Part shown: piece after piece, positions 4,822-29,202 of the stretch
Layout: each line of letters starts with the position of its first letter
Position numbering within the stretch: the first letter of the stretch is position 1
Source: a virus
Lineage: Duplodnaviria; Caudoviricetes
Virus record (IMG/VR): IMGVR_UViG_3300047290_000194
Location: 1-31,332 of that record
Strand: one strand, 5' to 3'
Length of the DNA stretch: 31,332 nucleotides
Position numbers and translations under genes: made by a program
The notes under the pieces: model-generated
What the model was told of the DNA's origin: nothing
Database searches by the model: none
The model's input: only the letters and a program-made list of their open reading frames with translations

Positions 4822-4891
4822 TTTTTTAGCTAATTCGGTTGACCAGAATCCCGCTCTAGCCTATAATATGGGTATAGTGAACAGCAAGGAG
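4788..4891 (+). promoter_or_regulatory. IHF box + sigma70 promoter + conserved leader cassette
   Basis: AATCAAACACTTA (4788-4800), TTGACC(4839)-17-TATAAT(4862), then ATGGGTATAGTGAACAGCAAGGAG. Confidence 0.85.
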
Positions 4892-4896
4892 CGCAA

Positions 4897-5166
4897 ATGG
4901 AACTGACCAAAGTTTTCAAAGTTTACAGCGGAAAACCGGGCTGCATGTGTGGCTGCAATGGCCGATACAAGATGGCCTCTGCGCATGCTGAGTTGGCTGG
5001 TACTGAGCGCGGTTATGCTGTGGATGACGAAGACATCAGCGATCGCAGCGTCAAGATCATCTTCAACAAAATCATGAAGAACCCTGCCCACAAGTATGAC
5101 GCTGATGCCAACTGCGTCTACGTTGAATCGGCCACCCGTAACCTCGTTGCTTTCTTTGTCAAGTAA
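4897..5166 (+). CDS. Hypothetical protein with YSGKPGCMCGC motif
   Basis: RBS present and first gene of the cassette. CxCxC suggests metal binding. Confidence 0.8.
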   Translation: MELTKVFKVYSGKPGCMCGCNGRYKMASAHAELAGTERGYAVDDEDISDRSVKIIFNKIMKNPAHKYDADANCVYVESATRNLVAFFVK

Positions 5167-11167: not shown

Positions 11168-12358
11168 ATGACCATCAAACAAGTAATGAGCGGCAACGAA
11201 CTGCGAGTACCGGTAAAGATCTGGACGCAGGATATTGAACTGCAAGCTCTTGAGCAGGCTCGCAAGCTGGCTCAGCTGCCCTTCATTCACAAAAACGGCG
11301 TGGCCTTGATGCCCGACGTGCATGCTGGTATTGGCTCTACGGTGGGCTCGGTGATAGCGACTGAACATGCTGTGATCCCGGCGGCTGTGGGTGTGGATAT
11401 TGGCTGCGGCATGAACGCGGTTCGCACTAGCCTGCGCGCCGAAGACCTGCCGGATAGCCTGCGTGATGTGCGTCTGCAGATCGAGCGCGACGTGCCCCTG
11501 GGCGCAGGTGGTGCTCACAAGGAAGACCTGTCTGTGTTCCCGCAGCCCTTGGGCACTCGGGCTCGCCAACTGTTCGCAAAGCATCCCGACTTGGAAACCC
11601 GGCAATGGCATCGCCAGCTGGGCACCCTGGGCTCGGGCAACCACTTTATCGAGCTGTGCCTGGACGAAGAGGGCGCGGTGTGGATCATGCTGCATTCGGG
11701 TAGCCGTGGTGTTGGCAACACGATTGGTCGTCACTTTATCGATCAAGCCAAGCGCCTGATGGAACGGTTCTTCATCACGCTGCCGGATCGTGACTTGGCA
11801 TATTTGCCGGATGGTACCCAGGAATTCGCTGACTACATCGAAGCGATCGGTTGGGCGCAGGACTATGCTCGTGAAAATCGTGCTATCATGATGACTGCGG
11901 TGATCGCGTCGCTGCGCCGGCATATCCCGGTAGAGTTTGAGCTGACCTCCGAAGCGGTCAATGCACATCATAACTACCTGGAGATCGAGAACCACTTTGG
12001 CACCAACATGTATATCACTCGCAAGGGTGCTATCCGTGCGCGTCGAGGTGATCTTGGTATTATTCCCGGTAGCATGGGCGCCAAGAGCTACATCGTCCAG
12101 GGTCTGGGCAATCCGGAATCCTACTGCTCGTGTAGCCATGGTGCGGGTCGCAAGATGTCGCGCACCGAAGCGACTCGGCGTTTCACTGTGGAGGATTTGA
12201 AGGCACAGACTGCGGGTGTGGAATGCAACAAGACGTCCGCGGTTATCGACGAGATTCCGGGTGCATACAAGGACATTGATGTGGTCATGGAGAACCAGCG
12301 GGACTTGGTTCGTGTGGTGCATACCCTGAAGCAGGTCATGTGCGTTAAAGGTGCGTAA
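11168..12358 (+). CDS. rtcB: RNA-splicing/repair ligase RtcB
   Basis: MPDVHAG.G, GVDIGCGM, GTLGSGNHF, HSGSRG, HHNY, RKGA, IPGSMG, SCSHGAGR, DEIPGAYK. Confidence 0.97.
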   Translation: MTIKQVMSGNELRVPVKIWTQDIELQALEQARKLAQLPFIHKNGVALMPDVHAGIGSTVGSVIATEHAVIPAAVGVDIGCGMNAVRTSLRAEDLPDSLRDVRLQIERDVPLGAGGAHKEDLSVFPQPLGTRARQLFAKHPDLETRQWHRQLGTLGSGNHFIELCLDEEGAVWIMLHSGSRGVGNTIGRHFIDQAKRLMERFFITLPDRDLAYLPDGTQEFADYIEAIGWAQDYARENRAIMMTAVIASLRRHIPVEFELTSEAVNAHHNYLEIENHFGTNMYITRKGAIRARRGDLGIIPGSMGAKSYIVQGLGNPESYCSCSHGAGRKMSRTEATRRFTVEDLKAQTAGVECNKTSAVIDEIPGAYKDIDVVMENQRDLVRVVHTLKQVMCVKGA

Positions 12359-14207: not shown

Positions 14208-15866
14208 TTAGACTTGAGCATTTTTAGCCTCCAGTGCGGCAACTTTTGCGTTGAGTTCTTGGATAGATTTCATTAAGGCAAACATTAAGTCTGTTGTATA
14301 AACGGATTTAAGGGGTATTTCGCCTTCTTTTGTTTCCCCAAAACCATCATTATTTACAAATTCAGGTGCCACAGCTTCTACATCTTGAGCAATTACACCA
14401 AGTGTTTTTTGTTCTCCTGCTGGTTCGTCTTTGTAATTAAATGTTTTAACTGGTATAGCGCATATTTTATTAAGATAAGAACTAGCCGGCTCAATGTTTT
14501 CTTTTGTTCTTTCGTCTGAAAGATTTGTATTGTTACCAGAATAGTTTGCCACTCCACCATTTGCTTGAACATAAAAACGATAGCCGTTATTTGTAGCATT
14601 AGTGTTATATAGCAAGTAATAGTTTGAACCAGTAGAATCGTTTACAACATCGATCATATAAGGAACAGTTGCACTATAAATTTGTTTTAATCCTACACCT
14701 GTTGTGCTTCCAGAATCAGTTGTTCCAACCAGCAGATTCCCGTTGGAGTCGATGCGCATACGTTCTGAGCCACCCGTAGAGGCAGCAACGGTATCAGCGG
14801 CAGGAAACCATATTCCCGTATTCAAATCGCCTTTTGCGGCAACACTAGGAGCACTAGCCGACCCTGCGCCAAAAGATGCAACGGTATTGACAGTCAGTAA
14901 TGCGTCCGGCGAACTCGTCCCAACTCCTAGATTCGTCCCATCAAACGTCAGCGCACTCCCGCTCGTCGCAACCTTGCTGCCGTTGAGATAGAGAACGCCG
15001 TTTGCTGTGCCTGCGGAAAGAGTGGCACCATTCGTTACAGACAAAGCATTGGCAGTTAACGTCGTGCCGTCAAAAGTAAGGTTAGATGCTCCCGCTAATA
15101 CACCAGATGAGTTGTATTGAACTTGTGTATTAGAACCACCAATTGCGGGTGTTGAACCTTGAGGTCCTGTTGGTCCAGTCGATCCCGTAGCACCTTGAGC
15201 ACCTGTTGCACCTGTGGTTCCCTGCGCACCCGTAGTGCCTTGAGCTCCGGTAGTGCCTTGAGTGCCCACAGCGCCCTGTGCACCTGTTGCACCTGTGGTT
15301 CCCTGCGCACCCGTAGTGCCTTGAGCTCCGGTAGTGCCCTGAGCTCCTGTAGTTCCTTGTGTTCCAGTAGTGCCTTGGGTACCAGTTGCGCCCTGGGCCC
15401 CAGTAGTGCCCTGAGCTCCTGTTGTGCCTTGCGTTCCGGTAATGCCCTGAGCTCCTGTAGTGCCTTGAGCTCCTGTGGCACCTGTGGCACCTGTGGTTCC
15501 TTGTGCACCGGTTGCGCCTTGTGCGCCTGTATCGCCCTGTATACCTTGAGTACCTTGGGTACCAGTGGTACCTTGAGCACCCACAGTGCCTTGTGTTCCC
15601 GTGGTGCCTTGAACGCCTTGGATTCCATCTGTGCCTTGTACACCTTGTGTGCCCTGTGTACCTGTAGTACCTTGCGCACCCGTAGTACCTTGTGCACCTG
15701 TAGTGCCTTGCGTGCCGCCGCTTATGGGCGCGCCGTTGGCCAGGGCGAAACTGGCCCCTATCACGTTGCCCAATGCGGTAAAGGTGGCTGAATCGATGAC
15801 TACGTTGCCCTGTGCGCTCACAGTCTTGATAGTGTAATCACCGCTGATGCGTTTGGTTGTGCCCAT
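14208..15866 (-). CDS. Collagen-like tail/virion fibre protein with C-terminal S74 intramolecular chaperone
   Basis: Start [11 protein letters not shown] after AAAGGA. About 60 G-X-Y triplets, then [41 protein letters not shown] and GVIAQDVE. Confidence 0.88.
15156..15716 (-). repeat. Collagen G-X-Y (GTT/GAQ) coding repeat with an exact 59-bp duplication
   Basis: 9/18-nt periodicity. 15199-15257 is identical to 15280-15338. Confidence 0.9.
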
Positions 15867-15883
15867 TACCTGGTCCTTTTGAA

Positions 15884-15889
15884 TATTTA
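15884..15889 (-). promoter_or_regulatory. T4-late-like promoter hexamer TAAATA for the fibre gene
   Basis: CTAAATATTCAAAAGGACCAGGTAATG on - strand, with no -35. Confidence 0.6.
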
Positions 15890-15958
15890 GCACGCCCTGC
15901 AGGCAGCTGGCACCAATCGGTGATCTATTGGCCCCGATTACTGGGTGATTTACAGCAG

Positions 15959-16040
15959 AATCAAACACTTAGCGGGCACATTTTGGTTGACCACAATAGT
16001 CGTTTAGCCTATAATATGGGTATAGTGAACAGTTAGGAGC
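15959..16040 (+). promoter_or_regulatory. IHF box + sigma70 promoter + conserved leader cassette
   Basis: AATCAAACACTTA (15959-15971), TTGACC(15987)-17-TATAAT(16010), ATGGGTATAGTGAACAGTTAGGAG. Near-identical to the 4788 cassette. Confidence 0.85.
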
Positions 16041-16045
16041 AGGCA

Positions 16046-16819
16046 ATGTATCGCACAACCGCCGCAGATCGCAAGGCTGAAGCTGCCCGCTATCGTCAAA
16101 TGACTGAACTGGCGCAGCGCCACACGCCGACCCCATCATTTTACACGCCAGGTCCCCGGAGCAAAACCATGAAACCACCCCAAATGGCCACTGTGTTAGG
16201 TGCGGAAATCATGTGGGGCTTGGCAGCCTACGCAGACCGCGTGAATGGCGGCTATGTCCGAGAGACCCAGCGCGATGAACTGGGTGCAGTGGTGCGCGAG
16301 CGCAATCGAGACGTGATCAAACTGGAAGTGGCAGCGGGCCTGCCCAACGTGACCGATGCTGACATCCAGCTGGGCCGCCAGGCCCGTGACTGGCATCAGT
16401 ACCGGCTCACCCTGAAGAAACTGCGCGGCGAGCCGCTGTCGGAGTTTGAGGTCACGCTGAAAGACGCGGTGCAGCAGGAAGAATTTTCCAATCGGACCGA
16501 CGGGCTCAACATCGCTGTGGTGGCCAGCCAGATCTCTGCCTACCGCAAAGGGCAGGAACAAGAGCAGATGATGGACACCGTCGACAAGACGCCCCTGGCC
16601 CCAGTGGGTGCCAAGGTCGCAGTGGAAGCCACTGTGGTGCGCTCGGTGTATAGCCATAATTGGAACGTATTTTTTGTCACTGCTCGGACCCAGTGCAATC
16701 GCCTGGTGTTCTTTAGCTTCCGTGAAAAGCTGGAAGCTGGCACCCCGATCCGGGCGCGTGGCACTGTCAAAGCACATCGCCCGGACTCGACCCAACTGAA
16801 CCGCGTGAAACTGGTATAA
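16046..16819 (+). CDS. Hypothetical protein with probable C-terminal OB fold
   Basis: AGGAG RBS. VGAKVAVEATV...IRARGTVKAH...TQLNRVK. Confidence 0.7.
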   Translation: MYRTTAADRKAEAARYRQMTELAQRHTPTPSFYTPGPRSKTMKPPQMATVLGAEIMWGLAAYADRVNGGYVRETQRDELGAVVRERNRDVIKLEVAAGLPNVTDADIQLGRQARDWHQYRLTLKKLRGEPLSEFEVTLKDAVQQEEFSNRTDGLNIAVVASQISAYRKGQEQEQMMDTVDKTPLAPVGAKVAVEATVVRSVYSHNWNVFFVTARTQCNRLVFFSFREKLEAGTPIRARGTVKAHRPDSTQLNRVKLV

Positions 16820-16828
16820 GGAACTAGC

Positions 16829-17056
16829 ATGGGTATCCGCGTATTCGAAAATCGGGACAGGCTGCTGGAACTGGGATTTCACGTCGTGGAAGTGCCCTGG
16901 AACCAAGGATGGCTGGCCGGGATGAATCCCGTGGACTCCTGGTGCCAGCAGCATCTCCAGGGTGAATACGATGTCCGGATGCATCGGTCGCGTCAGCTCA
17001 CCGGGTTTTTTCGCTCCGATGCCGATGCCATGCTGTTCAAGTTGAAGTGGTCATAA
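16829..17056 (+). CDS. Small protein of a WC...F..(E/D).D...F.L(K/R)W family
   Basis: SWCQQHL...FFRSDADAMLFKLKWS. Confidence 0.75.
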   Translation: MGIRVFENRDRLLELGFHVVEVPWNQGWLAGMNPVDSWCQQHLQGEYDVRMHRSRQLTGFFRSDADAMLFKLKWS

Positions 17057-17065
17057 GGATTGTAG

Positions 17066-17233
17066 ATGGTTTATAAGGCCAAGATGCCCCGAGCTTGGGC
17101 TAGGATGGAATGGTGCCGGCAGACTTTTGGACCACCCGTAAAAGGTGGTAACTGGTGGCGGCATCGCGGACATCTTTATTTCCGCGAAGAACGGGATTAT
17201 GCGTTCTATCTTTTGAGATGGATCTCCGAATGA
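17066..17233 (+). CDS. 55-aa paralog of the same family (not in track)
   Basis: MVYKAKMPRAWARMEWCRQTFGPPVKGGNWWRHRGHLYFREERDYAFYLLRWISE. AAGGA RBS. Confidence 0.75.
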   Translation: MVYKAKMPRAWARMEWCRQTFGPPVKGGNWWRHRGHLYFREERDYAFYLLRWISE

Positions 17234-17243
17234 GTCAAGATGG

Positions 17244-17284
17244 TTGACAAGAAACCGCTGATAAGCTATACTAGCGGCTAAATA
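17244..17284 (+). promoter_or_regulatory. sigma70 promoter plus downstream TAAATA late-type hexamer
   Basis: TTGACA-17-TATACT (17244-17272) and TAAATA (17279-17284). Confidence 0.8.
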
Positions 17285-17287
17285 AAC

Positions 17288-17336
17288 ATGCAGGTGGGAT
17301 AGACCCACCCCGCATCAACCCTATAGGAGTTATAGG
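17288..17336 (+). ncRNA. Candidate cis-regulatory leader RNA (GAUAGA hairpin + GGAGU-loop hairpin)
   Basis: GGTGGG-ATAGA-CCCACC, then CCTATA-GGAGT-TATAGG just before the ATG. Confidence 0.6.
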
Positions 17337-17339
17337 ACC

Positions 17340-18377
17340 ATGAAGAAATACGATCTAGCAGTGGTGATCGGACGTTTCCAACCCGTTCACAACGCCCACG
17401 TGGAAATGCTTCGACGTGCCGGCGAGCAAGCCAATCGAGTAGTAATCATCGTGGGCAGCGCCAACCGTCCGCGCACCTTCAAAAACCCCTGGCTCAGCCG
17501 CGAACGTGCAGCCATGCTGATCGAAGCTGTGGCGCCGCTTCAGAAAACCACCGGGGCCACCTACCACATCGAACACAACATCGACACCATCTACAATGAC
17601 CAGGCCTGGGTGGTGCGAGTGCAAGAACTGGTGGGCCGGCATTGCCAAGAGGGTGACCGTGTGGCCCTGTTTGGTCACAAGAAAGATTCCAGCAGCTTCT
17701 ATCTCAATATGTTCCCGCAGTGGCAATTCGTGCCCCAGGATCTAATTGAAAACCTCAACGCCACTGAGATTCGCAAGATCTACTTTACCCCGGATCTGTG
17801 CAACCTCAACTGGTTCCGCGGCGTGGTACCCGAAAGCACCGTGGCATATCTGCGCTGGTTCAAAGACTCACCCGAATACAACCAAGTGGTTCGCGAGAAG
17901 GAATTCTTAGAGAAGTACAAGCAGCAGCAGGCTGCCTATCCCTACCCCATCATCTTCGTCACTGCCGATGCGGTGGTCATACAGAGCGGTCACGTGCTCA
18001 TGGTCAAGCGCGGTGCCGACCCCGGCAATGGGCTCTGGGCCTTGCCCGGCGGCTTTGTAGATGCGGTGGGTGATCGCACCATGGAAGATGCTGCCCTGCG
18101 CGAACTCCGCGAAGAGACTGGTATCAAGGTTCCGGAAAAGGTCTTGCGTGGCAGCATCGTGGGCAACCGGGTGTTTGACTCCCCGGATCGCAGCCAGCGT
18201 GGTCGCACCATCACCCATGCGTTCCACATCAGCCTGCAAGAAGGTGAATGGAACCTACCCAAAGTAAAAGGTGCCGACGACGCAGAACGGGCGCAGTGGA
18301 TTCCCATCAGCCAGCTCAAGAGCGAAGTGATCTTTGAAGATCACTACGACATCATCATGCACTTTTTGGGCAAGTAG
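17340..18377 (+). CDS. nadM: Bifunctional NMN adenylyltransferase / Nudix ADP-ribose pyrophosphatase (NadM-Nudix, NatV-like)
   Basis: GRFQPVHNAH, GSAN, KNPW, GHKKDSSSFYL, NATEIR; Nudix box GG...AALRELREETG; GADDA; FEDH. Confidence 0.95.
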   Translation: MKKYDLAVVIGRFQPVHNAHVEMLRRAGEQANRVVIIVGSANRPRTFKNPWLSRERAAMLIEAVAPLQKTTGATYHIEHNIDTIYNDQAWVVRVQELVGRHCQEGDRVALFGHKKDSSSFYLNMFPQWQFVPQDLIENLNATEIRKIYFTPDLCNLNWFRGVVPESTVAYLRWFKDSPEYNQVVREKEFLEKYKQQQAAYPYPIIFVTADAVVIQSGHVLMVKRGADPGNGLWALPGGFVDAVGDRTMEDAALRELREETGIKVPEKVLRGSIVGNRVFDSPDRSQRGRTITHAFHISLQEGEWNLPKVKGADDAERAQWIPISQLKSEVIFEDHYDIIMHFLGK

Positions 18378-18383
18378 CAGCAG

Positions 18384-18412
18384 TTGACCTGTTATGGCAA
18401 GGGTGCTATAAT
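18384..18412 (+). promoter_or_regulatory. sigma70 promoter with extended -10
   Basis: TTGACC-17-TATAAT, TGn, followed by GGTATAGT. Confidence 0.85.
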
Positions 18413-18430
18413 AAGGTATAGTAGCAAAAA

Positions 18431-18473
18431 GTCCCGGCGATAGAGCTGGGCACATTTGATAAGGAGTTTATCA
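18431..18473 (+). ncRNA. Second copy of the candidate leader RNA
   Basis: CCCGGC-GATAGA-GCTGGG (one G.U pair), then TGATAA-GGAGT-TTATCA, which includes the A of the ATG. Confidence 0.6.
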
Positions 18474-19852
18474 TGAAATTGGCAAAAAACATCATCCTCA
18501 ATACTGACAGCTACAAGTGCAGTCAGTGGCAGCAATATCCTGCTGGTACCGAACGCATCTACAGCTACATCGAATCGCGTGGTGGACGCTGGAAAGAAAC
18601 TGTGTTCTTTGGTCTCCAAGCATTCCTGCGTGAATATCTGTCCGAACCTATTACGATGGCGGACATCGACATCGCGGAAAAAATCATCACCGCACACGGC
18701 GAACCCTTCAACCGTGCGGGCTGGGAATATATCGTCAAGCAACATGGCGGAAAACTGCCGGTAGAGATCCGCGCAGTGCCGGAAGGTACCGTGATCGAAA
18801 CCCAAAACGTCTTGGTCACGATCGTCAACACTGACCCTGAGTGCTACTGGCTTACCAGCTACTTGGAAACTGCCCTGCTCCGCGCAGTGTGGTATCCTAC
18901 CACTGTGGCCACCAACAGCTATTCCAGTAAACAAATCATCCAGCGTGGTCTTGAAGAAACCGGTGACCCGTCGCAGATCAGCTTCAAGCTGCATGACTTC
19001 GGTGCGCGTGGCGTATCCAGCCAAGAAAGTGCTGCTCTTGGTGGTGCTGCTCACTTGATCAACTTCATGGGCACTGACACTATGGCTGGTATCCTTGCTG
19101 CCATGGAATACTACGATGCCGAAGTTTGTGGTTTTTCGATCCCTGCCATGGAACACAGCACGGTGACTTCGTGGGGTCGTGAAAACGAAGTGGAGGCCTA
19201 CCGCAACATGCTGAGCAAGTATGCCAAACCTGGTGCGCTTTTGGCCTGTGTCAGCGACAGCTACGACATCTACAACGCCTGTAAGCTCTGGGGTACCGAG
19301 CTCAAGCAACAGGTCATTGACTCAGGTGCTATGGTAGTGATCCGTCCGGACTCGGGCGATCCTGCCACGGTGGTGGTCAAGTGTGCGCGTATCCTGGACG
19401 AACACTTTGGTCACACGCTCAACGACAAGCGGTACCGTGTGCTCAACAACGTGCGCATCATCCAGGGCGATGGCATCGATGACGTCACTATCCGTGGTAT
19501 CCTGTTGGCACTGCAAATGGCTGGATACAGCGCCGACAACGTGGCGTTTGGTCAGGGTGGTGCCTTGCTGCAACAGGTCAATCGTGACACGCTCAAGTTC
19601 GCTATGAAGTGTTCGGCTGCATACATCAATGGTGCTTGGCGCGATGTTTACAAGGATCCGGTTACGGATTCGGGCAAACGCAGCAAGCGTGGTCGCCTGC
19701 AATTGATCCGCGAACAGGGTGGCGAGTTCCAGACTGTAAGTTACTCTGAAAGCCAAGCCAGCAAGGATCAGCTGCAAGTGGTGTATCGCAATGGTGAGCT
19801 TGTGAACCAAACCACGTTCCAAGCCGTGCGCGATCGCGCAGCCCAGGGCTAA
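18473..19852 (+). CDS. nadV: Nicotinamide phosphoribosyltransferase (NAMPT)
   Basis: TDSYK, YSYIESRGG, LHDFGARG, GTDT, SIPAMEHS, VSDSYD, IRPDSGDP, IIQGDGI, RDTLKFAMK, KDPVTD.GK.SK.G. Confidence 0.97.
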   Translation: MKLAKNIILNTDSYKCSQWQQYPAGTERIYSYIESRGGRWKETVFFGLQAFLREYLSEPITMADIDIAEKIITAHGEPFNRAGWEYIVKQHGGKLPVEIRAVPEGTVIETQNVLVTIVNTDPECYWLTSYLETALLRAVWYPTTVATNSYSSKQIIQRGLEETGDPSQISFKLHDFGARGVSSQESAALGGAAHLINFMGTDTMAGILAAMEYYDAEVCGFSIPAMEHSTVTSWGRENEVEAYRNMLSKYAKPGALLACVSDSYDIYNACKLWGTELKQQVIDSGAMVVIRPDSGDPATVVVKCARILDEHFGHTLNDKRYRVLNNVRIIQGDGIDDVTIRGILLALQMAGYSADNVAFGQGGALLQQVNRDTLKFAMKCSAAYINGAWRDVYKDPVTDSGKRSKRGRLQLIREQGGEFQTVSYSESQASKDQLQVVYRNGELVNQTTFQAVRDRAAQG

Positions 19853-19858
19853 TCCACA

Positions 19859-19880
19859 GGGGTGGGAGCGATCCCACCCC
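19859..19880 (+). terminator. 9-bp hairpin with GNRA loop after nadV
   Basis: GGGGTGGGA-GCGA-TCCCACCCC, no U tract. Confidence 0.55.
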
Positions 19881-19893
19881 ACACGAGAATGAC

Positions 19894-20163
19894 ATGAAAT
19901 ACCGAGTTATCCAACGCAATAAGAATTTCGAGCTGCGCGAAGAGCAGGTGCGTGGTCAGAACAGCAAGAAGACCCGGCGCATGTATCGCCTACGCTACCT
20001 GGGCTGGGTCACTCCTGATGTGATCGAACGCATGAACCGCCTGATCGATCCCGATGCCAATCGGGGCATCAGGCATCTCAAACGTTTTCGATCGCATGAG
20101 CGTGCTTTGCAGGCGTTTATGACATTGACTCTGGCTTGGCCCGTTGACAAGTCCCAAAACTGA
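19894..20163 (+). CDS. Basic hypothetical protein
   Basis: 89 aa. The C-terminal F......AFMTLTLAW loosely resembles the 16829/17066 family. Confidence 0.65.
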   Translation: MKYRVIQRNKNFELREEQVRGQNSKKTRRMYRLRYLGWVTPDVIERMNRLIDPDANRGIRHLKRFRSHERALQAFMTLTLAWPVDKSQN

Positions 20164-20172
20164 TCATAAAAT
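20144..20172 (+). promoter_or_regulatory. sigma70 promoter (leaderless transcript likely)
   Basis: TTGACA-17-TAAAAT, with the ATG 6 nt after the -10. Confidence 0.75.
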
Positions 20173-20178
20173 CATCAT

Positions 20179-20361
20179 ATGAATACCTGGATCTTGATCT
20201 TAGTGCTCAACTACACCCAACCCTTGGCACCTGTGGTCATACAGGGTTTTGCCACAGAAGCTGACTGTCAAGCCACCGCTGATCAACTACACGAGAGGCC
20301 CGTTCGCCTGGCACCTGCCGTTGTCACGGTTTGTGTGCCCGCTAAAATCGCAGCTAAGTAA
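20179..20361 (+). CDS. Small protein with hydrophobic N-terminus and two Cys
   Basis: MNTWILILVL...FATEADCQ...CVP. Confidence 0.65.
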   Translation: MNTWILILVLNYTQPLAPVVIQGFATEADCQATADQLHERPVRLAPAVVTVCVPAKIAAK

Positions 20362-20378
20362 GGCATAAGGAGATTTCT

Positions 20379-21641
20379 ATGCCCACTGTGCTTCGAACCC
20401 AACGCTACTCAGCTGACACCGCTATAGGCAGCTTTCATCCACCCCGCCGCACTCTCATGGGTCCGGGACCTACTGAAATCCATCCCCGTGTGCTGACCAC
20501 CATGAGCCAACCAGCTGTGGGGTATCTTGACCCGGTTTTCGTGGTCATGATGGAAGAGCTCAAGAGCCTGCTGCGCTATGCTTATCAAACACAAAACCCC
20601 CTGACTTTTCCTGTGTCGGGACCGGGATCTGTGGGAATGGAGTACTGTTTTGTCAACATGGTGGCGCCCGGCGATCGCACGATAGTGTGCCGCAACGGTG
20701 TTTTTGGTGGTCGCATGATTGAAAACGTGTTGCGTGTGGGCGGGCAACCAGTGGTAGTGGAAGCTGAATGGGGTCAGCCCATAGATCCGCAACGACTGGA
20801 AGATGCCCTGCGCGCCAACCCCGATGTGCGAGTGGTAGCTTTCGTACACGCCGAGACCAGCACCGGCGTGTTGAGCGACGCGGCCAGTTTGGTCGAAGTG
20901 GCTCACTCACACGGAGCCATGACCATCGTGGACTGCGTGACCAGCCTAGCTGGATCTCCGGTCTTGGTGGATGAATGGGGCATAGATGCTGCCTACTCCG
21001 CCAGTCAAAAGTGCCTGAGCTGCACACCGGGGCTGAGCCCCGTGACCTTCAGCGATCGAGTAGTAGACCACGTGAAGTCACGCAAGGACAAGATCCGCAG
21101 CTGGTTTATGGACATGAATCTCTTGCTGGGCTACTGGGGCGAGACCACCCGTACCTATCATCATACCGCACCCACCAACAGCCTGTTCGCCCTGCATGAA
21201 GCTCTGGTTTTGCTGGCCGAAGAAGGTCTAGACCAAGCCTGGGCCCGTGTGCGCAGAGATCACACTGCGCTCAAGGCCGGGCTAGAAGCCATGGGTCTCA
21301 AATTTTTGGTAGACCCGCAGTATCAGATCCCCCAGATGAACGCGGTATTGTGCCCCCAAGGAGTCAACGAAGCTGAAGTGCGGCAACGACTCTTGCGTGA
21401 CTTTGGTCTTGAAATTGGTGCGGGATTGGGACCACTGGCTGGCAAGATCTGGCGCTTTGGTCTCATGGGCTACTCATGTCGCCCGGCCAATGTGATGCTG
21501 TGCCTGTCTGCTCTGGGTTCGGTCCTGGAAGACATGGGTCATCCGGTACATGTGGGCGACGCCGAGGCCGCTGCTCATGCGGCCTATGCCAAACTGCAAT
21601 TGGAAGAAGTACAGAATCATTATCGCCGCATGGCAATCTAA
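20379..21641 (+). CDS. Alanine/serine-glyoxylate aminotransferase (class V PLP)
   Basis: LMGPGP, SGPGSVGME, VHAETSTGV, VDCVTSL, SASQKCL (PLP Lys), YHHTAP, IWRFGLMG. Confidence 0.93.
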   Translation: MPTVLRTQRYSADTAIGSFHPPRRTLMGPGPTEIHPRVLTTMSQPAVGYLDPVFVVMMEELKSLLRYAYQTQNPLTFPVSGPGSVGMEYCFVNMVAPGDRTIVCRNGVFGGRMIENVLRVGGQPVVVEAEWGQPIDPQRLEDALRANPDVRVVAFVHAETSTGVLSDAASLVEVAHSHGAMTIVDCVTSLAGSPVLVDEWGIDAAYSASQKCLSCTPGLSPVTFSDRVVDHVKSRKDKIRSWFMDMNLLLGYWGETTRTYHHTAPTNSLFALHEALVLLAEEGLDQAWARVRRDHTALKAGLEAMGLKFLVDPQYQIPQMNAVLCPQGVNEAEVRQRLLRDFGLEIGAGLGPLAGKIWRFGLMGYSCRPANVMLCLSALGSVLEDMGHPVHVGDAEAAAHAAYAKLQLEEVQNHYRRMAI

Positions 21642-21737: not shown

Positions 21738-23207
21738 ATGATATTGACCATGCTCATGTTCGTGGTCGCCCTGTGTCTCAGCTCAGTGGCGGCCTTTTAT
21801 TCCATAGTGGGGCTGACCGCCATATTCGCCGCGGCTGTGGTACCCATCGTGATCATGGGCTCCTTTTTGGAAGTGGCCAAACTGGTTGTCACGGTATGGC
21901 TGCACGAATACTGGCGCCAATGCCGTTGGGTCATGAAACTGTATTTGGTGCCTGCTGTGGGTGTGCTCATGCTCTTGACCAGCATGGGCATATTTGGATT
22001 TCTCAGCAAGGCTCATCTGGACCAGGCCGTGCCCACCGGAGATGTGGCCGCGCAGGTGGCCCTGATAGATGAGAAAATCAAAACCCAGCGTGATAATGTG
22101 GAAGCTGCCCGTCGTGCCCTGGCCCAGATGGATGCTCAGGTGGATCAGCGACTGAGCCGCAGCGACGATGACAAAGGCGCCGAACGTGCGGTACAGATAC
22201 GCCGAGCCCAGGCTCGCGAGCGCCAGCAACTACAGGCCGACATAGCCGAGGCACAGAAACGCATAGCGGCTCTGAACGAAGAACGTGCACCCGTAGCCAG
22301 CCAGCTGCGCCGAGTTGAGGCCGAAGTGGGTCCTATCAAATACATAGCGGCCCTGATCTACGGTGACAATCCCGATGCCAATCTGCTGGAACGTGCGGTG
22401 CGCTGGGTGATCATAGTGTTGGTGGCGGTGTTTGACCCCTTGGCCGTGATCATGCTCCTAGCAGCCACAGAAAGCCTGACCTGGGAGCGCCGGGCACGCC
22501 GTGAGGCAGCACCCACACAAGAACCAGACGCTGTGCAGCAACCACCCGAGGATCCACCCGGAAAACCCTGCCCCAAGTGTGCCACGCCCATGCTGGACGC
22601 GCCAGGTATAGGACCATTCTGCCCCAACAAAGCCTGTGACGTGTTAGACGGGCCCGATCTCTATCCAGAACAGCAGCAGACCGCCCGGGAACCATGGCGG
22701 AATCCGCCCATAGTGCCCTACCAGATCCTGGATGAAAACCCAGTTGACATTCCCGATGGTCACATCCTGCGCGACGATGATCCCGAGGACGAGCAGAACC
22801 CACGTGTCAAACAGGCCATGGCCCTGTGGAAAAGCCAGAATCCCGGTAAAACGCTCAAAGAGCAGAGAGCTCTGCTGCGAGCGGGCAAGATCGATCACTT
22901 GCCCTGGTTGGCGCTGCTGGATCAACTGCCACCGCGATTCAGTTTTGGGGATGATGCACCTCCTGAACCACACAAAGGAGACATGTGGATCAATACCCAA
23001 CCTAGGCCCCACCATGTGTGCAAGTGGAATGGCGATCAGTGGCTACAGGTTGACAAAGACCAAAACACCTCATATACTCAAGAACTGCCATACATAGACT
23101 ATCTCATACAACAACTGCATCAATCACGCTATGAAAGTGCATGGCTGACTGACGCAGAGGCCGATGCTATTACCAATCGTGTTGACACCCAACGGGACAC
23201 CCAATGA
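21738..23207 (+). CDS. Multi-TM coiled-coil membrane protein of large myoviruses, with CxxC insert
   Basis: Three N-terminal TMs ending GFLSKAH, a coiled coil, EVGPIKYIA, TM VFDPLAV, then CPKC...CPNKAC. Confidence 0.8.
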   Translation: MILTMLMFVVALCLSSVAAFYSIVGLTAIFAAAVVPIVIMGSFLEVAKLVVTVWLHEYWRQCRWVMKLYLVPAVGVLMLLTSMGIFGFLSKAHLDQAVPTGDVAAQVALIDEKIKTQRDNVEAARRALAQMDAQVDQRLSRSDDDKGAERAVQIRRAQARERQQLQADIAEAQKRIAALNEERAPVASQLRRVEAEVGPIKYIAALIYGDNPDANLLERAVRWVIIVLVAVFDPLAVIMLLAATESLTWERRARREAAPTQEPDAVQQPPEDPPGKPCPKCATPMLDAPGIGPFCPNKACDVLDGPDLYPEQQQTAREPWRNPPIVPYQILDENPVDIPDGHILRDDDPEDEQNPRVKQAMALWKSQNPGKTLKEQRALLRAGKIDHLPWLALLDQLPPRFSFGDDAPPEPHKGDMWINTQPRPHHVCKWNGDQWLQVDKDQNTSYTQELPYIDYLIQQLHQSRYESAWLTDAEADAITNRVDTQRDTQ

Positions 23208-24394
23208 CAGCTGAACAGACTTGTAGTTTTTGCGGCAAACCCAAAGGTACCGTGGCCCGTTTGATCGTGAGCGAGACGGTGGCCATCTGCAATGAGTGTG
23301 TGAGTTTGTGCGACACCCTGCTGGTGCAAGATCAGCAACAGGACACCGAAGTCAAGACCCAACTGGATCCTGTGGCCATCAAAGAATATCTGGATCAATA
23401 TGTGATAGGTCAAGAGCGAGCCAAGATGGTGTTGGCCGTGGCCATCGTGAATCACTACAAACGTATCAACAATCCCACCATCTGCGTGGAAAAAAGCAAC
23501 ATCCTGCTGATCGGTCCAACTGGATCGGGCAAAACACTGTTGGCACGCACGGTGGCCAAGTATCTAGACGTACCTTTTGTGATAGCCGACGCTACCAGCC
23601 TAACCGAAGCGGGCTACGTGGGTGATGACGTTGAGAGCCTGATCAGTAGACTCTATGCCGCGGCCGACTATGATGTCAACCGCTGTCAGCGGGGCATCGT
23701 GTTCATCGACGAAATCGACAAGATCACTCGCAAGAGCGAAAGCGCCAGTATCACCCGGGACGTGTCGGGCGAGGGCGTGCAACAGGCCCTGCTCAAACTG
23801 GTAGAAGGTACCAAGTGCAGGGTAGTGCCCCAGGGTGGTCGCAAACATCCCCAGGGCGACACAGTGGAGATTGATACCACCAACATCCTGTTCATGGCAG
23901 GTGGCGCCTTTATAGGTTTAGACAATCTGATCAAACGCAGAGTCCGGGGAACCAGCATGGGATTCGGCGCCAAAGTCAATGACAATCAGCGCGAAGACTA
24001 CCTGGCCAGTACCAATCCCGAAGATATCATTAGCTACGGTATGATCCCAGAGTTCGTGGGTCGCTTCCCCACTTGGGTCAGCCTGGCTGAACTGTCACGC
24101 CAAGAGCTGATAGAAATACTGATGCAGGTCAAAAACAGCTACATCGACCAATATCGTTGGTTGTTTGAGCAAGATGAAGTTGAGCTGGAGTTCAGCCAGC
24201 CGGCCCTGGAGCAGGTGGCCGACAACGCAATCCTCAACCGAACTGGTGCACGTGGTCTGCACAGCGAGTTGGAAAAGGTGCTCATGCCCCACATGTATCA
24301 GTTGGCCCGATATCGCAAGCAGGGCATAAAACGTGTGACCATCGACATCGATCTCGTAAATACCCCCAAGGAGTTGAAACAAGCCAATGCATAA
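23204..24394 (+). CDS. clpX: ClpX ATP-dependent unfoldase
   Basis: CSFCGK/ICNEC zinc domain, [47 protein letters not shown] loop, GARGL. Confidence 0.97.
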
Positions 24395-24730: not shown

Positions 24731-25171
24731 ATGACTCGTATCACTTCGCTTGATCTACAACCCTTCTACCGCACCTCCATTGGTGTGGATCGTTTGTTCG
24801 ACCGCATCCTGAGTCAGATGGATACCGCGGCCACAAACAACTACCCGCCCTACAACATAGTCAAAATCACAGACACTGTTTTTGAGCTGCAACTGGCTGT
24901 GGCTGGTTTCCGCCAAGGTGATCTAGAAATCACGGTCAAAGACGGCGTGTTGACCGTGGCCGGGCAGCGCACCGAGGAACTGCTCGAGGGACAGGAGTAC
25001 ATGTACCGCGGCATTGGTGCTCGCAAATTCAGCCGCACTTGGCCCCTGGGCGAGTATGTGGAAGTGCGTGATGCAGCGGTGGAGAACGGCATACTCACGG
25101 TCACACTGGAACAGGTGGTGCCCGAGAGTGCTCGTCCCAAAACCATTGCAATCACCTACAAAAACTCGTAA
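24731..25171 (+). CDS. Small heat-shock protein Hsp20 (IbpA-like)
   Basis: IGVDRLF, NYPPYNI, LAVAGF, YRGI..R.F.R, A.VENGIL. Confidence 0.95.
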   Translation: MTRITSLDLQPFYRTSIGVDRLFDRILSQMDTAATNNYPPYNIVKITDTVFELQLAVAGFRQGDLEITVKDGVLTVAGQRTEELLEGQEYMYRGIGARKFSRTWPLGEYVEVRDAAVENGILTVTLEQVVPESARPKTIAITYKNS

Positions 25172-27960: not shown

Positions 27961-29202
27961 ATGGCAAATATTGGTTTTATTGGACTAGGCAAGTTGGGCC
28001 TGGACTGTGCGGAAGTTTTCGCTGAACGGCACACGGTACGAGGTTTCGATATTTACCCGAGGTCCAGCTCGCTGGTCAAAGTATGCGATATCCACGAAGT
28101 GGTCAATCACAGTGAATGGATCTTTATCGCGGTGCCCACACCGCATGCCGCAGGCTACGATGGATCTGTTCCCAGCAGCCATATGGAGCCCCGAGATTTT
28201 GGCCATGAAGCTGTGATAGACGCCATCAATCAGATCAACCAGCATGCGCAGACATCCAAAAAGGTGGTATTGATCAGCACCGTGTTGCCCGGGACCACCC
28301 GACGTCATTTTTATCCCTTGTTGGACAAGCGACACCAGTTCTTGTACAACCCTTATCTGATCGCCATGGGATCAGTCAAGTGGGACATGGTCAACCCCGA
28401 AATGATCATGATCGGTACTGAGGACGGCAACCCCAATACTCTAGCGCAGGAACTGATAGAAATCTATCGCACCATCATGCAGAACGATCCGCGCTATGAA
28501 ATCGGCACCTGGGATGAGTGCGAGGCCATCAAGATCTTCTACAACACCTTTATCTCGGCCAAGGTGGGCTTGGCCAACATGATCCAAGATTTCGCCATGC
28601 GGATCGGTCATATCAATGTGGACGTGGTGACCACTGCTCTAGCCCGTAGCACCATGCGCATCATGGGACCAAAATACATGACCGCGGGCATGGGCGATGC
28701 TGGCGCTTGCCATCCCAGAGACAACATAGCCCTGCGCTGGTTGGCCCAGGAGTATGATCTGGGCTATGACCTATTTGATACTATCATGCATGCGCGAGAG
28801 GTCCAGGCACGCAACCTAGCCCAGTACCTAATCTCTTGCAAGGTCACTCCTGACATGCAGATAGCGATCCACGGCAAGGCCTACAAGCCCGATGTGCCCT
28901 ACTGTATCGGCTCCTACTCCACGCTGGTGGGACACTATGTGGCCGAAGCTGGACACGATGTGATGTATGTGGATCCCATGGCCGACGATCGTACGGACTG
29001 CGTGGATCAACTGCAACTGCCCGCAGTGATCCTGATGGCGCACAATCGCAAGGTCACCTACGGTTACACTGGCCAACAAGCCCAGGACAAGTTTTATTTT
29101 GAAATTCCCGTGGGCAGCATAGTGGTAGACCCCTGGCGTACACTGACTTCAGCAGATGTGGCTGGGTCATGGGTTATCCACTATGGCAACAGCCGTGCCT
29201 AG
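27961..29202 (+). CDS. UDP-glucose/GDP-mannose dehydrogenase family protein
   Basis: IGLGKLG Rossmann, FIAVPTP, STVLPGT, YNP, E.IK.FYN, catalytic GACHPRD, AYKP, VDPW. Confidence 0.92.
   Translation: MANIGFIGLGKLGLDCAEVFAERHTVRGFDIYPRSSSLVKVCDIHEVVNHSEWIFIAVPTPHAAGYDGSVPSSHMEPRDFGHEAVIDAINQINQHAQTSKKVVLISTVLPGTTRRHFYPLLDKRHQFLYNPYLIAMGSVKWDMVNPEMIMIGTEDGNPNTLAQELIEIYRTIMQNDPRYEIGTWDECEAIKIFYNTFISAKVGLANMIQDFAMRIGHINVDVVTTALARSTMRIMGPKYMTAGMGDAGACHPRDNIALRWLAQEYDLGYDLFDTIMHAREVQARNLAQYLISCKVTPDMQIAIHGKAYKPDVPYCIGSYSTLVGHYVAEAGHDVMYVDPMADDRTDCVDQLQLPAVILMAHNRKVTYGYTGQQAQDKFYFEIPVGSIVVDPWRTLTSADVAGSWVIHYGNSRA

Follow-up and report, generated by a model that had tools for sequence, protein, structure and literature searches.

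The stretch of DNA analysed here (the window) is the entire record IMGVR_UViG_3300047290_000194, a phage fragment of 31,332 bases that ends where the record ends. It contains two adjacent genes of nicotinamide adenine dinucleotide (NAD) salvage, nadM-Nudix and nadV, each preceded by a leader that is predicted to fold into two small hairpins, and it is this leader element that we describe. The product of nadM-Nudix has the domains PF01467 and PF00293, matches the PRK05379 model and is a close relative of PDB entry 2QJO (E 8e-84); NadV has the domains PF18127 and PF04095 and matches the PRK09198 model. The window phage possesses genes for both activities (Nampt and Nmnat) of the NAD+ reconstitution system NARP2. 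An earlier note, made from this sequence, had assigned a separate promoter to each of the two genes and had placed the four hairpins. Both assignments were confirmed, the promoters being of the sigma70 type, and the mapped parts are collected in the table.

Table. Features mapped around the two NAD salvage genes (positions in the 31,332-base window)
Feature	Position	Strand	Remarks
Predicted sigma70-type promoter of nadM-Nudix	17244..17272	+	TTGACA-17-TATACT, 11/12 consensus
TAAATA immediately upstream of hairpin 1, candidate core of a T4-type late promoter	17279..17284	+
Copy 1, hairpin 1	17293..17309	+	6-base-pair stem, G-AUAGA-C pentaloop; extends to 17288-17315 via an internal loop
Copy 1, hairpin 2	17320..17336	+	6-base-pair stem, A-GGAGU-U pentaloop containing the Shine-Dalgarno sequence
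nadM-Nudix	17340..18377	+	bifunctional nicotinamide mononucleotide (NMN) adenylyltransferase / ADP-ribose pyrophosphatase, 345 residues
Candidate RNA-reader basic sites of NadM-Nudix			around residues 257, 263, 270, 308, 310, 317; residue association
Predicted sigma70-type promoter of nadV	18384..18412	+	TTGACC-17-TATAAT, extended TG, 11/12 consensus
Copy 2, hairpin 1	18433..18450	+	6-base-pair stem including one G.U, GAUAGA loop (minority 6-nucleotide form)
Copy 2, hairpin 2	18457..18473	+	A-GGAGU-U pentaloop with the Shine-Dalgarno sequence; stem ends at the A of AUG
nadV	18473..19852	+	nicotinamide phosphoribosyltransferase, 459 residues
GC-rich hairpin right after the nadV stop	19859..19880	+	9 base pairs, without U tail; z -4.56

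The two hairpins form the minimum-energy as well as the centroid structure of both leaders (z -3.19 and -2.66 against 200 shuffles). On the plus strand of the window GGAGT occurs 23 times and ATAGA 19 times, and only in the two leaders does the former make a pentaloop on a 6-base-pair (bp) stem and the latter cap such a stem. A covariance model of the element (R1) scored 37.2 and 27.9 bits at the leaders, the next match in the window reaching 14.6 bits, in agreement with the earlier statement that the combination stands before no other gene there. The supposed common architecture held for the two-hairpin fold and not for the hairpin 1 loops, which differ: the pentaloop of copy 1 is the canonical G-AUAGA-C, whereas copy 2 has a minority 6-nucleotide (nt) loop, a type found as G-AUAGA-G in 2 and as A-AUAGA-G in 3 of 209 distinct instances of the motif. 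The window stretch is matched by freshwater, reservoir and lake sequencing runs, and both leaders are covered by contigs from two other freshwater DNA runs; among the differences listed for these contigs, none falls in the copy 1 hairpins. As to start sites and expression, contigs of one "RNA" run cover the leaders, but this run is probably DNA, and those of a true RNA run do not cover them.

Comparison of 80 viral and 80 bacterial nadV loci indicates that the leader element is a conserved RNA motif, composed of two freely varying but paired stems capped by purine-rich pentaloops. Both hairpins were present in 35 of 54 distinct viral nadV leaders and in 24 of 49 viral nadM leaders, and in bacteria the motif precedes both genes in alpha-, beta- and gammaproteobacteria, cyanobacteria, Acidobacteria and Myxococcota. 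An alignment was built from 120 of 161 instances (near-duplicates, off-register rows and rows with 6-nt loops were left out); its rows were selected for having stems, which makes its pairing and covariation figures partly circular (85.5% of cells paired, compared with 48.8% after shuffling and no more than 43% in slid controls; covariation of 0.873 against 0.198). Two-sided changes were seen in all 14 stem pairs of this alignment, G.U pairs included, which bears out the earlier view that the stems change yet keep pairing at the RNA level; a DNA operator or cruciform was rejected on this ground.

The circularity is avoided by gene-blind patterns, which prescribe nothing beyond the loops and three or four pairs. 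The first viral pattern gave 91 matches, and 27 of the 31 with a hairpin 2 stem of at least 5 bp head nadM or nadV, against 3 of the other 60. Metagenomes yielded 70 matches, 47 of them before nadM or nadV; for those with both stems the figure was 28 of 29, the remaining one lying at a contig end. A second viral pattern produced at least 125 matches in at least 123 loci, and among the matches listed, 24 of the 31 with both stems directly precede one of these two genes, the other seven (six distinct) heading a small open reading frame (ORF) before nadM-nadV (three), nadA (two) or an ORF-nadA-NAD kinase unit (one). When 50 whole viral records were searched with R1, 70 matches were obtained in 34 records; the genes behind 43 of them were nadM or nadV (30), nadA (1), pnuC (1) and small or short ORFs inside NAD clusters (10), and the single unrelated match was also the weakest (19.2 bits). 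Finally, in 81 viral loci the two-hairpin arrangement was present in 66 of 111 nadM/nadV leaders and before 10 of 274 other ORFs bearing a Shine-Dalgarno sequence, and a general phage leader or promoter stem-loop was rejected accordingly. Several of these ten ORFs stand first in an operon with nadM or nadV, and the filter may have missed some that are themselves nadM (checked in part). The motif is consequently found upstream of viral and bacterial homologues and is rare before unrelated genes, as would be expected if the earlier note was right about its specificity.

The element thus marks a predicted NAD regulon comprising nadM-Nudix, nadV, nadA, pnuC and nadE. It precedes nadA directly at two loci (G082/L412 and L389) and through one small intervening ORF in G502. 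In Azospirillum B510 it stands before both nadM-Nudix and nadE, the operon being nadM-nadE-pncB-pncA, and in phage G503 before nadM-Nudix within a pncB/pncA/nadE cluster; the B510 plasmid and the G503 record are partial views of their genomes. The G503 locus (L521, G503:C1:54085-60250) holds a full deamidating NAD salvage set (nadM-Nudix, pncB, pncA and a glutamine-dependent nadE) and adjoins a Ros/MucR gene. Exceptions came from two alphaproteobacterial genomes. One is G897, with a second motif copy on a LuxR-type helix-turn-helix (HTH) gene downstream of its nadM. In the other, G821, copies of the motif (L559, L560 and L562) head short ORFs of 8-24 codons, which lie 110-290 nt before nadV, a CoaD/CoaE-like fusion and a gene of no assigned function; these copies could represent a variant with a leader peptide, or a cassette that was duplicated. 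The sequence after the L559 copy resembles that after the L562 copy. Another locus, L253 (G077:C1:77947-78958), has three consecutive motif copies, placed before two small ORFs without assigned function and then nadV, and the inserted ORFs seem to inherit the leader.

The claim that the element is specific to the NAD pathway and placed for translational control agrees with these targets and with the position of the Shine-Dalgarno sequence inside hairpin 2. The earlier note also supposed that the leader could help the phage to rebuild NAD under host defence; the motif occurs in at least four bacterial phyla and is not phage-specific, so anti-defence timing would be at most one of its uses.

The anatomy of the motif was profiled on the 209 distinct instances. 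The loop of hairpin 1 has the composition A82 U65 A96 G97 A84 (percent) with G-C closing in about 86%, G-AUAGA-C being found in 123 of 209, and that of hairpin 2 G100 G97 A96 G80 U67; apart from the closing pairs, stem and linker positions lack conservation, and in 201 of 209 the two loops lie 23-33 nt apart. On the sequence evidence the two loops are interchangeable: a GGAGN loop of the hairpin 2 type is placed in hairpin 1 in 32 of 209 instances (sphingomonads and relatives), and phage RSL1 has an AGAGA loop of the hairpin 1 type in hairpin 2. The nadM and nadV leaders of the same locus agree in loop class in 77 of 81 pairs (shuffled mean 35, maximum 46), their stems sharing 2.4 of 6 nt against 1.6 between genomes, and further joint loop switches are seen in an Erwinia phage. 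We infer from this profile a protein-binding site that is present twice and whose partner is particular to the lineage, rather than a ligand pocket.

The pseudoknot that the earlier note proposed for copy 2, between the loop of hairpin 1 and the start region, is possible on paper and is not conserved. Over all 209 instances the longest such pairing has a mean length of 3.48 nt, compared with 3.58 nt when the tails are shuffled, copy 1 reaches 3 nt, and pairings of at least 6 nt number 13 against 7.4 in shuffles, an excess that was not traced to a clade. A pseudoknot switch was rejected on this ground, and loop-loop kissing because the pairing does not exceed 2 nt.

The RNA family appears to be new. 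Rfam 15 gave seven matches at E<=10 in the interval 16000-21000, all far below gathering and none on the leaders. According to PMC6859854, the NAD+-I riboswitch (nadA motif) consists of tandem stem-bulge domains, each with a ACANCCCC internal bulge, and is exclusively upstream of nadA. Like the present motif, it has stem-loops in tandem ahead of an NAD gene, and the ribosome site is part of the second one. However, our leaders lack the ACANCCCC bulge and the AGYG loop, are conserved in their terminal loops, and stand mostly on nadM-Nudix and nadV within a wider gene set tied to NadM-Nudix; the bulge is absent from both window copies and from the 209-instance column profile. The NAD+-II riboswitch (pnuC motif), as described in PMC8632094, has a conserved internal bulge between two stems and a pseudoknot with the ribosome site. 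The two share translational control of NAD-related genes, pnuC being once among our targets, but the motif has neither the conserved bulge nor the ribosome-site pseudoknot and is not confined to Streptococcus. The view that the leaders differ from both riboswitches is thus upheld. The main-text passages seen of PMC8632094, PMC11109978, PMC10690425, PMC5737381, PMC9503650 and PMC13464706 do not contain the motif, nor did one supplement of PMC8632094 match it; no description was found in the literature, of which subscription journals were mostly uncovered, and the motif may sit unnamed in the candidate-set supplements of PMC11109978, PMC5737381 and PMC10690425.

NadM-Nudix is the one gene found with the motif in nearly every genome examined. 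Among 401 Pseudomonadota genomes nine have both genes, 13 only nadM-Nudix and 11 only nadV; the motif is present in eight of the nine and in none of the 13 or the 11 (Fisher p 6e-7, kinship being ignored). Of the 50 source genomes of bacterial nadV loci, 22 yielded no full-length NadM-Nudix, and none of these has a two-hairpin nadV leader, as is the case for one nadV-only cyanobacterium. The two-hairpin form is accordingly missing from all 34 nadV genomes in which NadM-Nudix was not found (22 + 11 + 1). One incomplete Acidobacteria metagenome-assembled genome (MAG) without full NadM-Nudix keeps hairpin 1. Losses of the motif on nadV are nested within motif-bearing nadV clades. Conversely, of 401 alphaproteobacteria six contain NadM-Nudix, and three of these (G706, G976 and G897) carry the motif on nadM (24.6-24.9 bits; hairpin 2 of G976 is degenerate), although nadV was not found in them by a protein query or with PF18127, G908 serving as positive control. 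The NadM-Nudix of G897 (L556, G897:C5:8708-9866) is without the HxxH motif of the NMN adenylyltransferase (NMNAT), yet the RNA motif and the basic sites described below are kept. Since the motif persists without nadV and its two-hairpin form is missing without NadM-Nudix, we regard NadM-Nudix as the common gene. A whole-genome RNA search of 50 bacterial genomes with strict filters gave matches in 12; it missed G706 despite its 24.9-bit locus, and its blanks were therefore not counted as absence.

Residues of the protein also track the motif. We compared 125 NadM-Nudix sequences, thinned at 75% identity, of which 99 have the full motif, 13 hairpin 2 only and 13 none. The columns that follow the motif best lie after the Nudix helix (257, 263, 265, 268 and 271) and around the GxDDA loop (308, 310 and 317). 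Residue 310 is K or R in 97 of 99 motif-bearing proteins, 6 of 13 with hairpin 2 only and 4 of 13 motif-less ones, and the mean count over six basic sites is 4.9, 3.5 and 1.2, respectively. The net charge of residues 255-320 is +1.1 in the first two classes and -3.8 in the motif-less one, and the NMNAT half shows no difference. Ten other basic columns stay at 0.92 or above in motif-less proteins; a few (2, 225, 230 and 261) also drop. Discriminating columns number 7 of 139 in NadM and 1 of 223 in NadV. Residue 310, chosen on an earlier set, was then scored on 16 new proteins: the three with a non-basic residue are all without the motif, although their loci carry nadV, and the 13 with a basic one have the full or a variant motif (nine), hairpin 2 only (three) or none (one). 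Five further proteins, all from genomes with the motif, are basic at 310. The GGAGN loop class accompanies an insertion in the 261-271 segment of NadM-Nudix. The NrtR model matches the Nudix half of the window protein (residues 184-339, E 1.6e-16). Four NadM-Nudix homologues (L481, L483, L484 and L486) have a degenerate Nudix site, with changes at 210, 259 and 313-315, and an altered NMNAT loop; their genomes have neither nadV nor the motif.

Taken together, the element is a real, widespread, NAD-specific RNA, and the comparative data suggest NadM-Nudix as its best-supported reader. This protein probably binds the twin hairpins and represses the translation of its own gene and of its pathway partners. 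An oligomer of NadM-Nudix would grip the two similar pentaloops at their roughly fixed distance, with a contact surface that includes basic residues of the Nudix half, and its binding would stabilise hairpin 2 and hide the Shine-Dalgarno sequence and the AUG. As in an autogenous operator, hairpin 2 holds the Shine-Dalgarno sequence of nadM-Nudix itself. Least certain is the gating: a metabolite in the Nudix pocket, such as ADP-ribose in the related DNA-binding NrtR domain, might release the RNA, and NAD synthesis would then rise while NAD+ is being cleaved, e.g. by host defence. Release by ADP-ribose would be the simplest gating, because the Nudix half is related to the NrtR sensor of this compound. 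The complete picture, in which NadM-Nudix is a moonlighting RNA-binding repressor, released by ADP-ribose and acting as an RNA-level counterpart of NrtR for nadM, nadV, nadE, nadA and pnuC, is considerably more tentative and less likely than not. Of the two modes of control considered in the earlier note, binding of the Nudix enzyme to its own mRNAs is the one favoured by the comparative data, and direct binding of a ligand is disfavoured.

Several observations weigh against NadM-Nudix as the reader. The protein is not sufficient, as all 13 nadM-only Pseudomonadota genomes are without the motif; in most of these proteins the basic sites are missing too, and in four the Nudix site is degenerate, so general divergence would also explain them, motif-less NadM-Nudix proteins being more divergent. 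Two incomplete records have the motif or its hairpin 1 without a NadM-Nudix match, i.e. MAG G007 and phage G501 (55% complete), in which the motif lies on nadA and the available part contains neither nadM-Nudix nor nadV. For G706, G976 and G897 a completeness of 90% was sought and the values were not reported. The motif and the genes may simply travel together as one module: such co-inheritance also fits the presence of the element in none of the 34 genomes without NadM-Nudix and in three without nadV (pair test p 0.5). The agreement in loop class amounts to about three independent switches only. On the protein side, the phylogenetic test (sign test p 0.5) has two independent pairs on supported branches and seven on the best tree. 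The same data had served to choose the six sites, and variant leaders were assigned by eye. Among the new proteins, L547 has R310 and no motif, and three basic-310 proteins go with hairpin 2 only. A single-sequence structure model was unusable (predicted local distance difference test 43.6) for placing the basic residues on one surface.

Among the alternatives, the one that survives best, though we consider it rather unlikely, is that another widely conserved host protein, such as an RNA-binding factor or a CsrA-like binder of GGA loops, reads the loops and NadM-Nudix merely co-travels. CsrA sites expose GGA in each hairpin loop, with the consensus ANGGAN in a hexaloop, and the loop of hairpin 2 does expose GGA; hairpin 2 is often the only one retained in phages that have both genes (KVP40, RB16 and phiN3), and co-occurrence can reflect inheritance of the module. 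However, the GGA of hairpin 2 lies in a pentaloop and most hairpin 1 loops have none, which differs from the CsrA/RsmA consensus. Moreover, the motif extends across at least four bacterial phyla and their phages, and such a reader would leave unexplained both its loss on nadV where nadM-Nudix is missing and the tracking by NadM residues.

It is unlikely that the element is a small riboswitch, in which NAD+, NMN, nicotinamide, ADP-ribose or phosphoribosyl pyrophosphate (PRPP) would bind directly to the RNA and thereby switch the Shine-Dalgarno sequence. Such a sensor would suit a leader that overlaps the ribosome site and precedes the enzymes and transporter of one pathway (nadM, nadV, nadA, pnuC and nadE), and it could draw on the slight excess of long pairings between the hairpin 1 loop and the start. 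Yet only about ten loop positions are conserved, half of them being the Shine-Dalgarno sequence, mean pseudoknot pairing is at chance, loop-loop pairing is negligible and no Rfam family matches. We disfavour this explanation because the linker shows no constraint, either loop type can occupy either hairpin and the loop type switches jointly on both leaders of a lineage, whereas a ligand would not vary by lineage; furthermore, a self-contained sensor would be expected without NadM-Nudix, and it was not found in the 34 nadV-only genomes.

Very unlikely, in our estimation, is a leader without any reader, in which hairpin 1 shields the 5' end and hairpin 2 fixes a low initiation rate for a costly pathway. 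Hairpin 1 does lie near the predicted transcript starts, and a brake would be useful: expression of NARP2 leads to an excess of NAD+ and uses up PRPP, and in E. coli the operon of KVP40 was toxic (10.1101/2024.02.11.579819). A translational brake makes sense for the same reason if NadM-Nudix is the reader. Nevertheless, a passive hairpin needs neither loop conservation, nor joint loop switching, nor dependence on a particular gene, and in many bacteria hairpin 1 lies inside the operon, between both genes.

Equally improbable is that NadV, or a NadM-NadV complex, is the reader by analogy with PyrR, a phosphoribosyltransferase that reads the RNA of the pyr leader: the restriction of the motif to genomes with both genes in the sample of 401 Pseudomonadota would fit, but no nadV was found in three genomes and two partial records that keep the motif, and NadV residues hardly track it.

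If NadM-Nudix is the reader, the mechanism is likely a variant of enzyme-mediated translational autoregulation. The T4 gp43 DNA polymerase operator and the E. coli thrS operator are autogenous translational operators read by enzymes. The leaders would resemble them in having a hairpin at or beside the ribosome site that is predicted to be bound by the encoded enzyme in negative feedback; they differ in that one element, with two interchangeable pentaloops, serves several genes of a metabolic regulon, in bacteria as well as in phages. To our knowledge, NadM-Nudix is a cofactor-synthesis enzyme without a known nucleic-acid substrate. Metabolic enzyme folds moonlighting as metabolite-gated binders of hairpin loops are exemplified by aconitase (IRP1) on the iron-responsive element and by PyrR on the pyr leader. 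Our proposal for NadM-Nudix would likewise make an enzyme the hairpin-loop regulator of its own pathway, but the RNA, fold and pathway are others, and the motif has no conserved terminator switch.

NrtR acts in the same pathway and is described in PMC9503650 and PMC13464706 as an ADP-ribose-sensing Nudix transcription repressor of NAD genes. It shares with NadM-Nudix a related Nudix domain, but is equipped with a DNA-binding domain and recognises a DNA palindrome of specific sequence, whereas NadM-Nudix carries an NMNAT domain instead of the HTH. The site described here is RNA and not DNA of the NrtR type, because its stem arms vary freely and include G.U pairs. The nadM promoters of three cyanobacterial loci (L526, L529 and L530) have in common a partly palindromic word upstream of the leader, which we assume could be an NrtR box; two of the three also have the RNA motif.

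Both regulated genes of the window encode NARP2 activities; protection from NAD+-depleting defence was shown for other phages, and the accessible part of that source describes no leader RNA or regulation (10.1101/2024.02.11.579819). KVP40, a tested source of NARP2, has hairpin 2 only, on natV, and no genome-wide match to the model.

The element represents a widespread family of cis-regulatory RNA, for which no catalogue entry was found, on a pathway central to the conflict between phages and hosts. Should NadM-Nudix prove to be the reader, an NAD enzyme of known structure would turn out to have an RNA-binding role that had gone unrecognised, and a translational feedback loop would join NadR, NrtR and two NAD riboswitches in NAD homeostasis; regulation may then spare natural phages the cost that NARP2 imposes on engineered ones. 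If release by ADP-ribose also proves true, phages and bacteria would start NAD rebuilding exactly during NAD+ destruction. The proposal specifies the protein, the RNA and the residues, and is thus decidable by binding and reporter assays.

Other features of the window concern its transcription. The hairpin after nadV is a possible 3' end of the unit, outside the motif; similarly strong GC-rich intergenic hairpins without a U tail lie upstream of 8309 and 25227. Among viral leaders, TAAATA, which we take to be the core of T4-type late promoters, lies within about 30 nt upstream of the hairpin 1 loop in 37 of 54 for nadM but in 3 of 50 for nadV, a hint at additional late transcription of nadM. 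In the window this word is found upstream of genes at 17279, 21726, 24357, 24663 and 25179, two of the occurrences being TATAAATA, which suggests late promoters of this type. Near-identical promoter-leader cassettes at 4836-4899 and 15985-16048 (TTGACC, 17 nt, TATAAT, then an identical 17-nt downstream run and AGGAG) head unrelated genes, and similar TTGACC/TATAAT promoters lie at 85, 8629, 10968 and 18384.

On the minus strand, opposite to its neighbours, 14208-15968 encodes a tail-fibre-like collagen-repeat protein with a C-terminal Peptidase_S74 chaperone domain. The fragment also contains host-like genes for RtcB (11168-12358), a class-V aminotransferase (20379-21641), ClpX with a zinc finger (23204-24394), Hsp20 (24731-25171) and UDP-glucose dehydrogenase (27961-29202).

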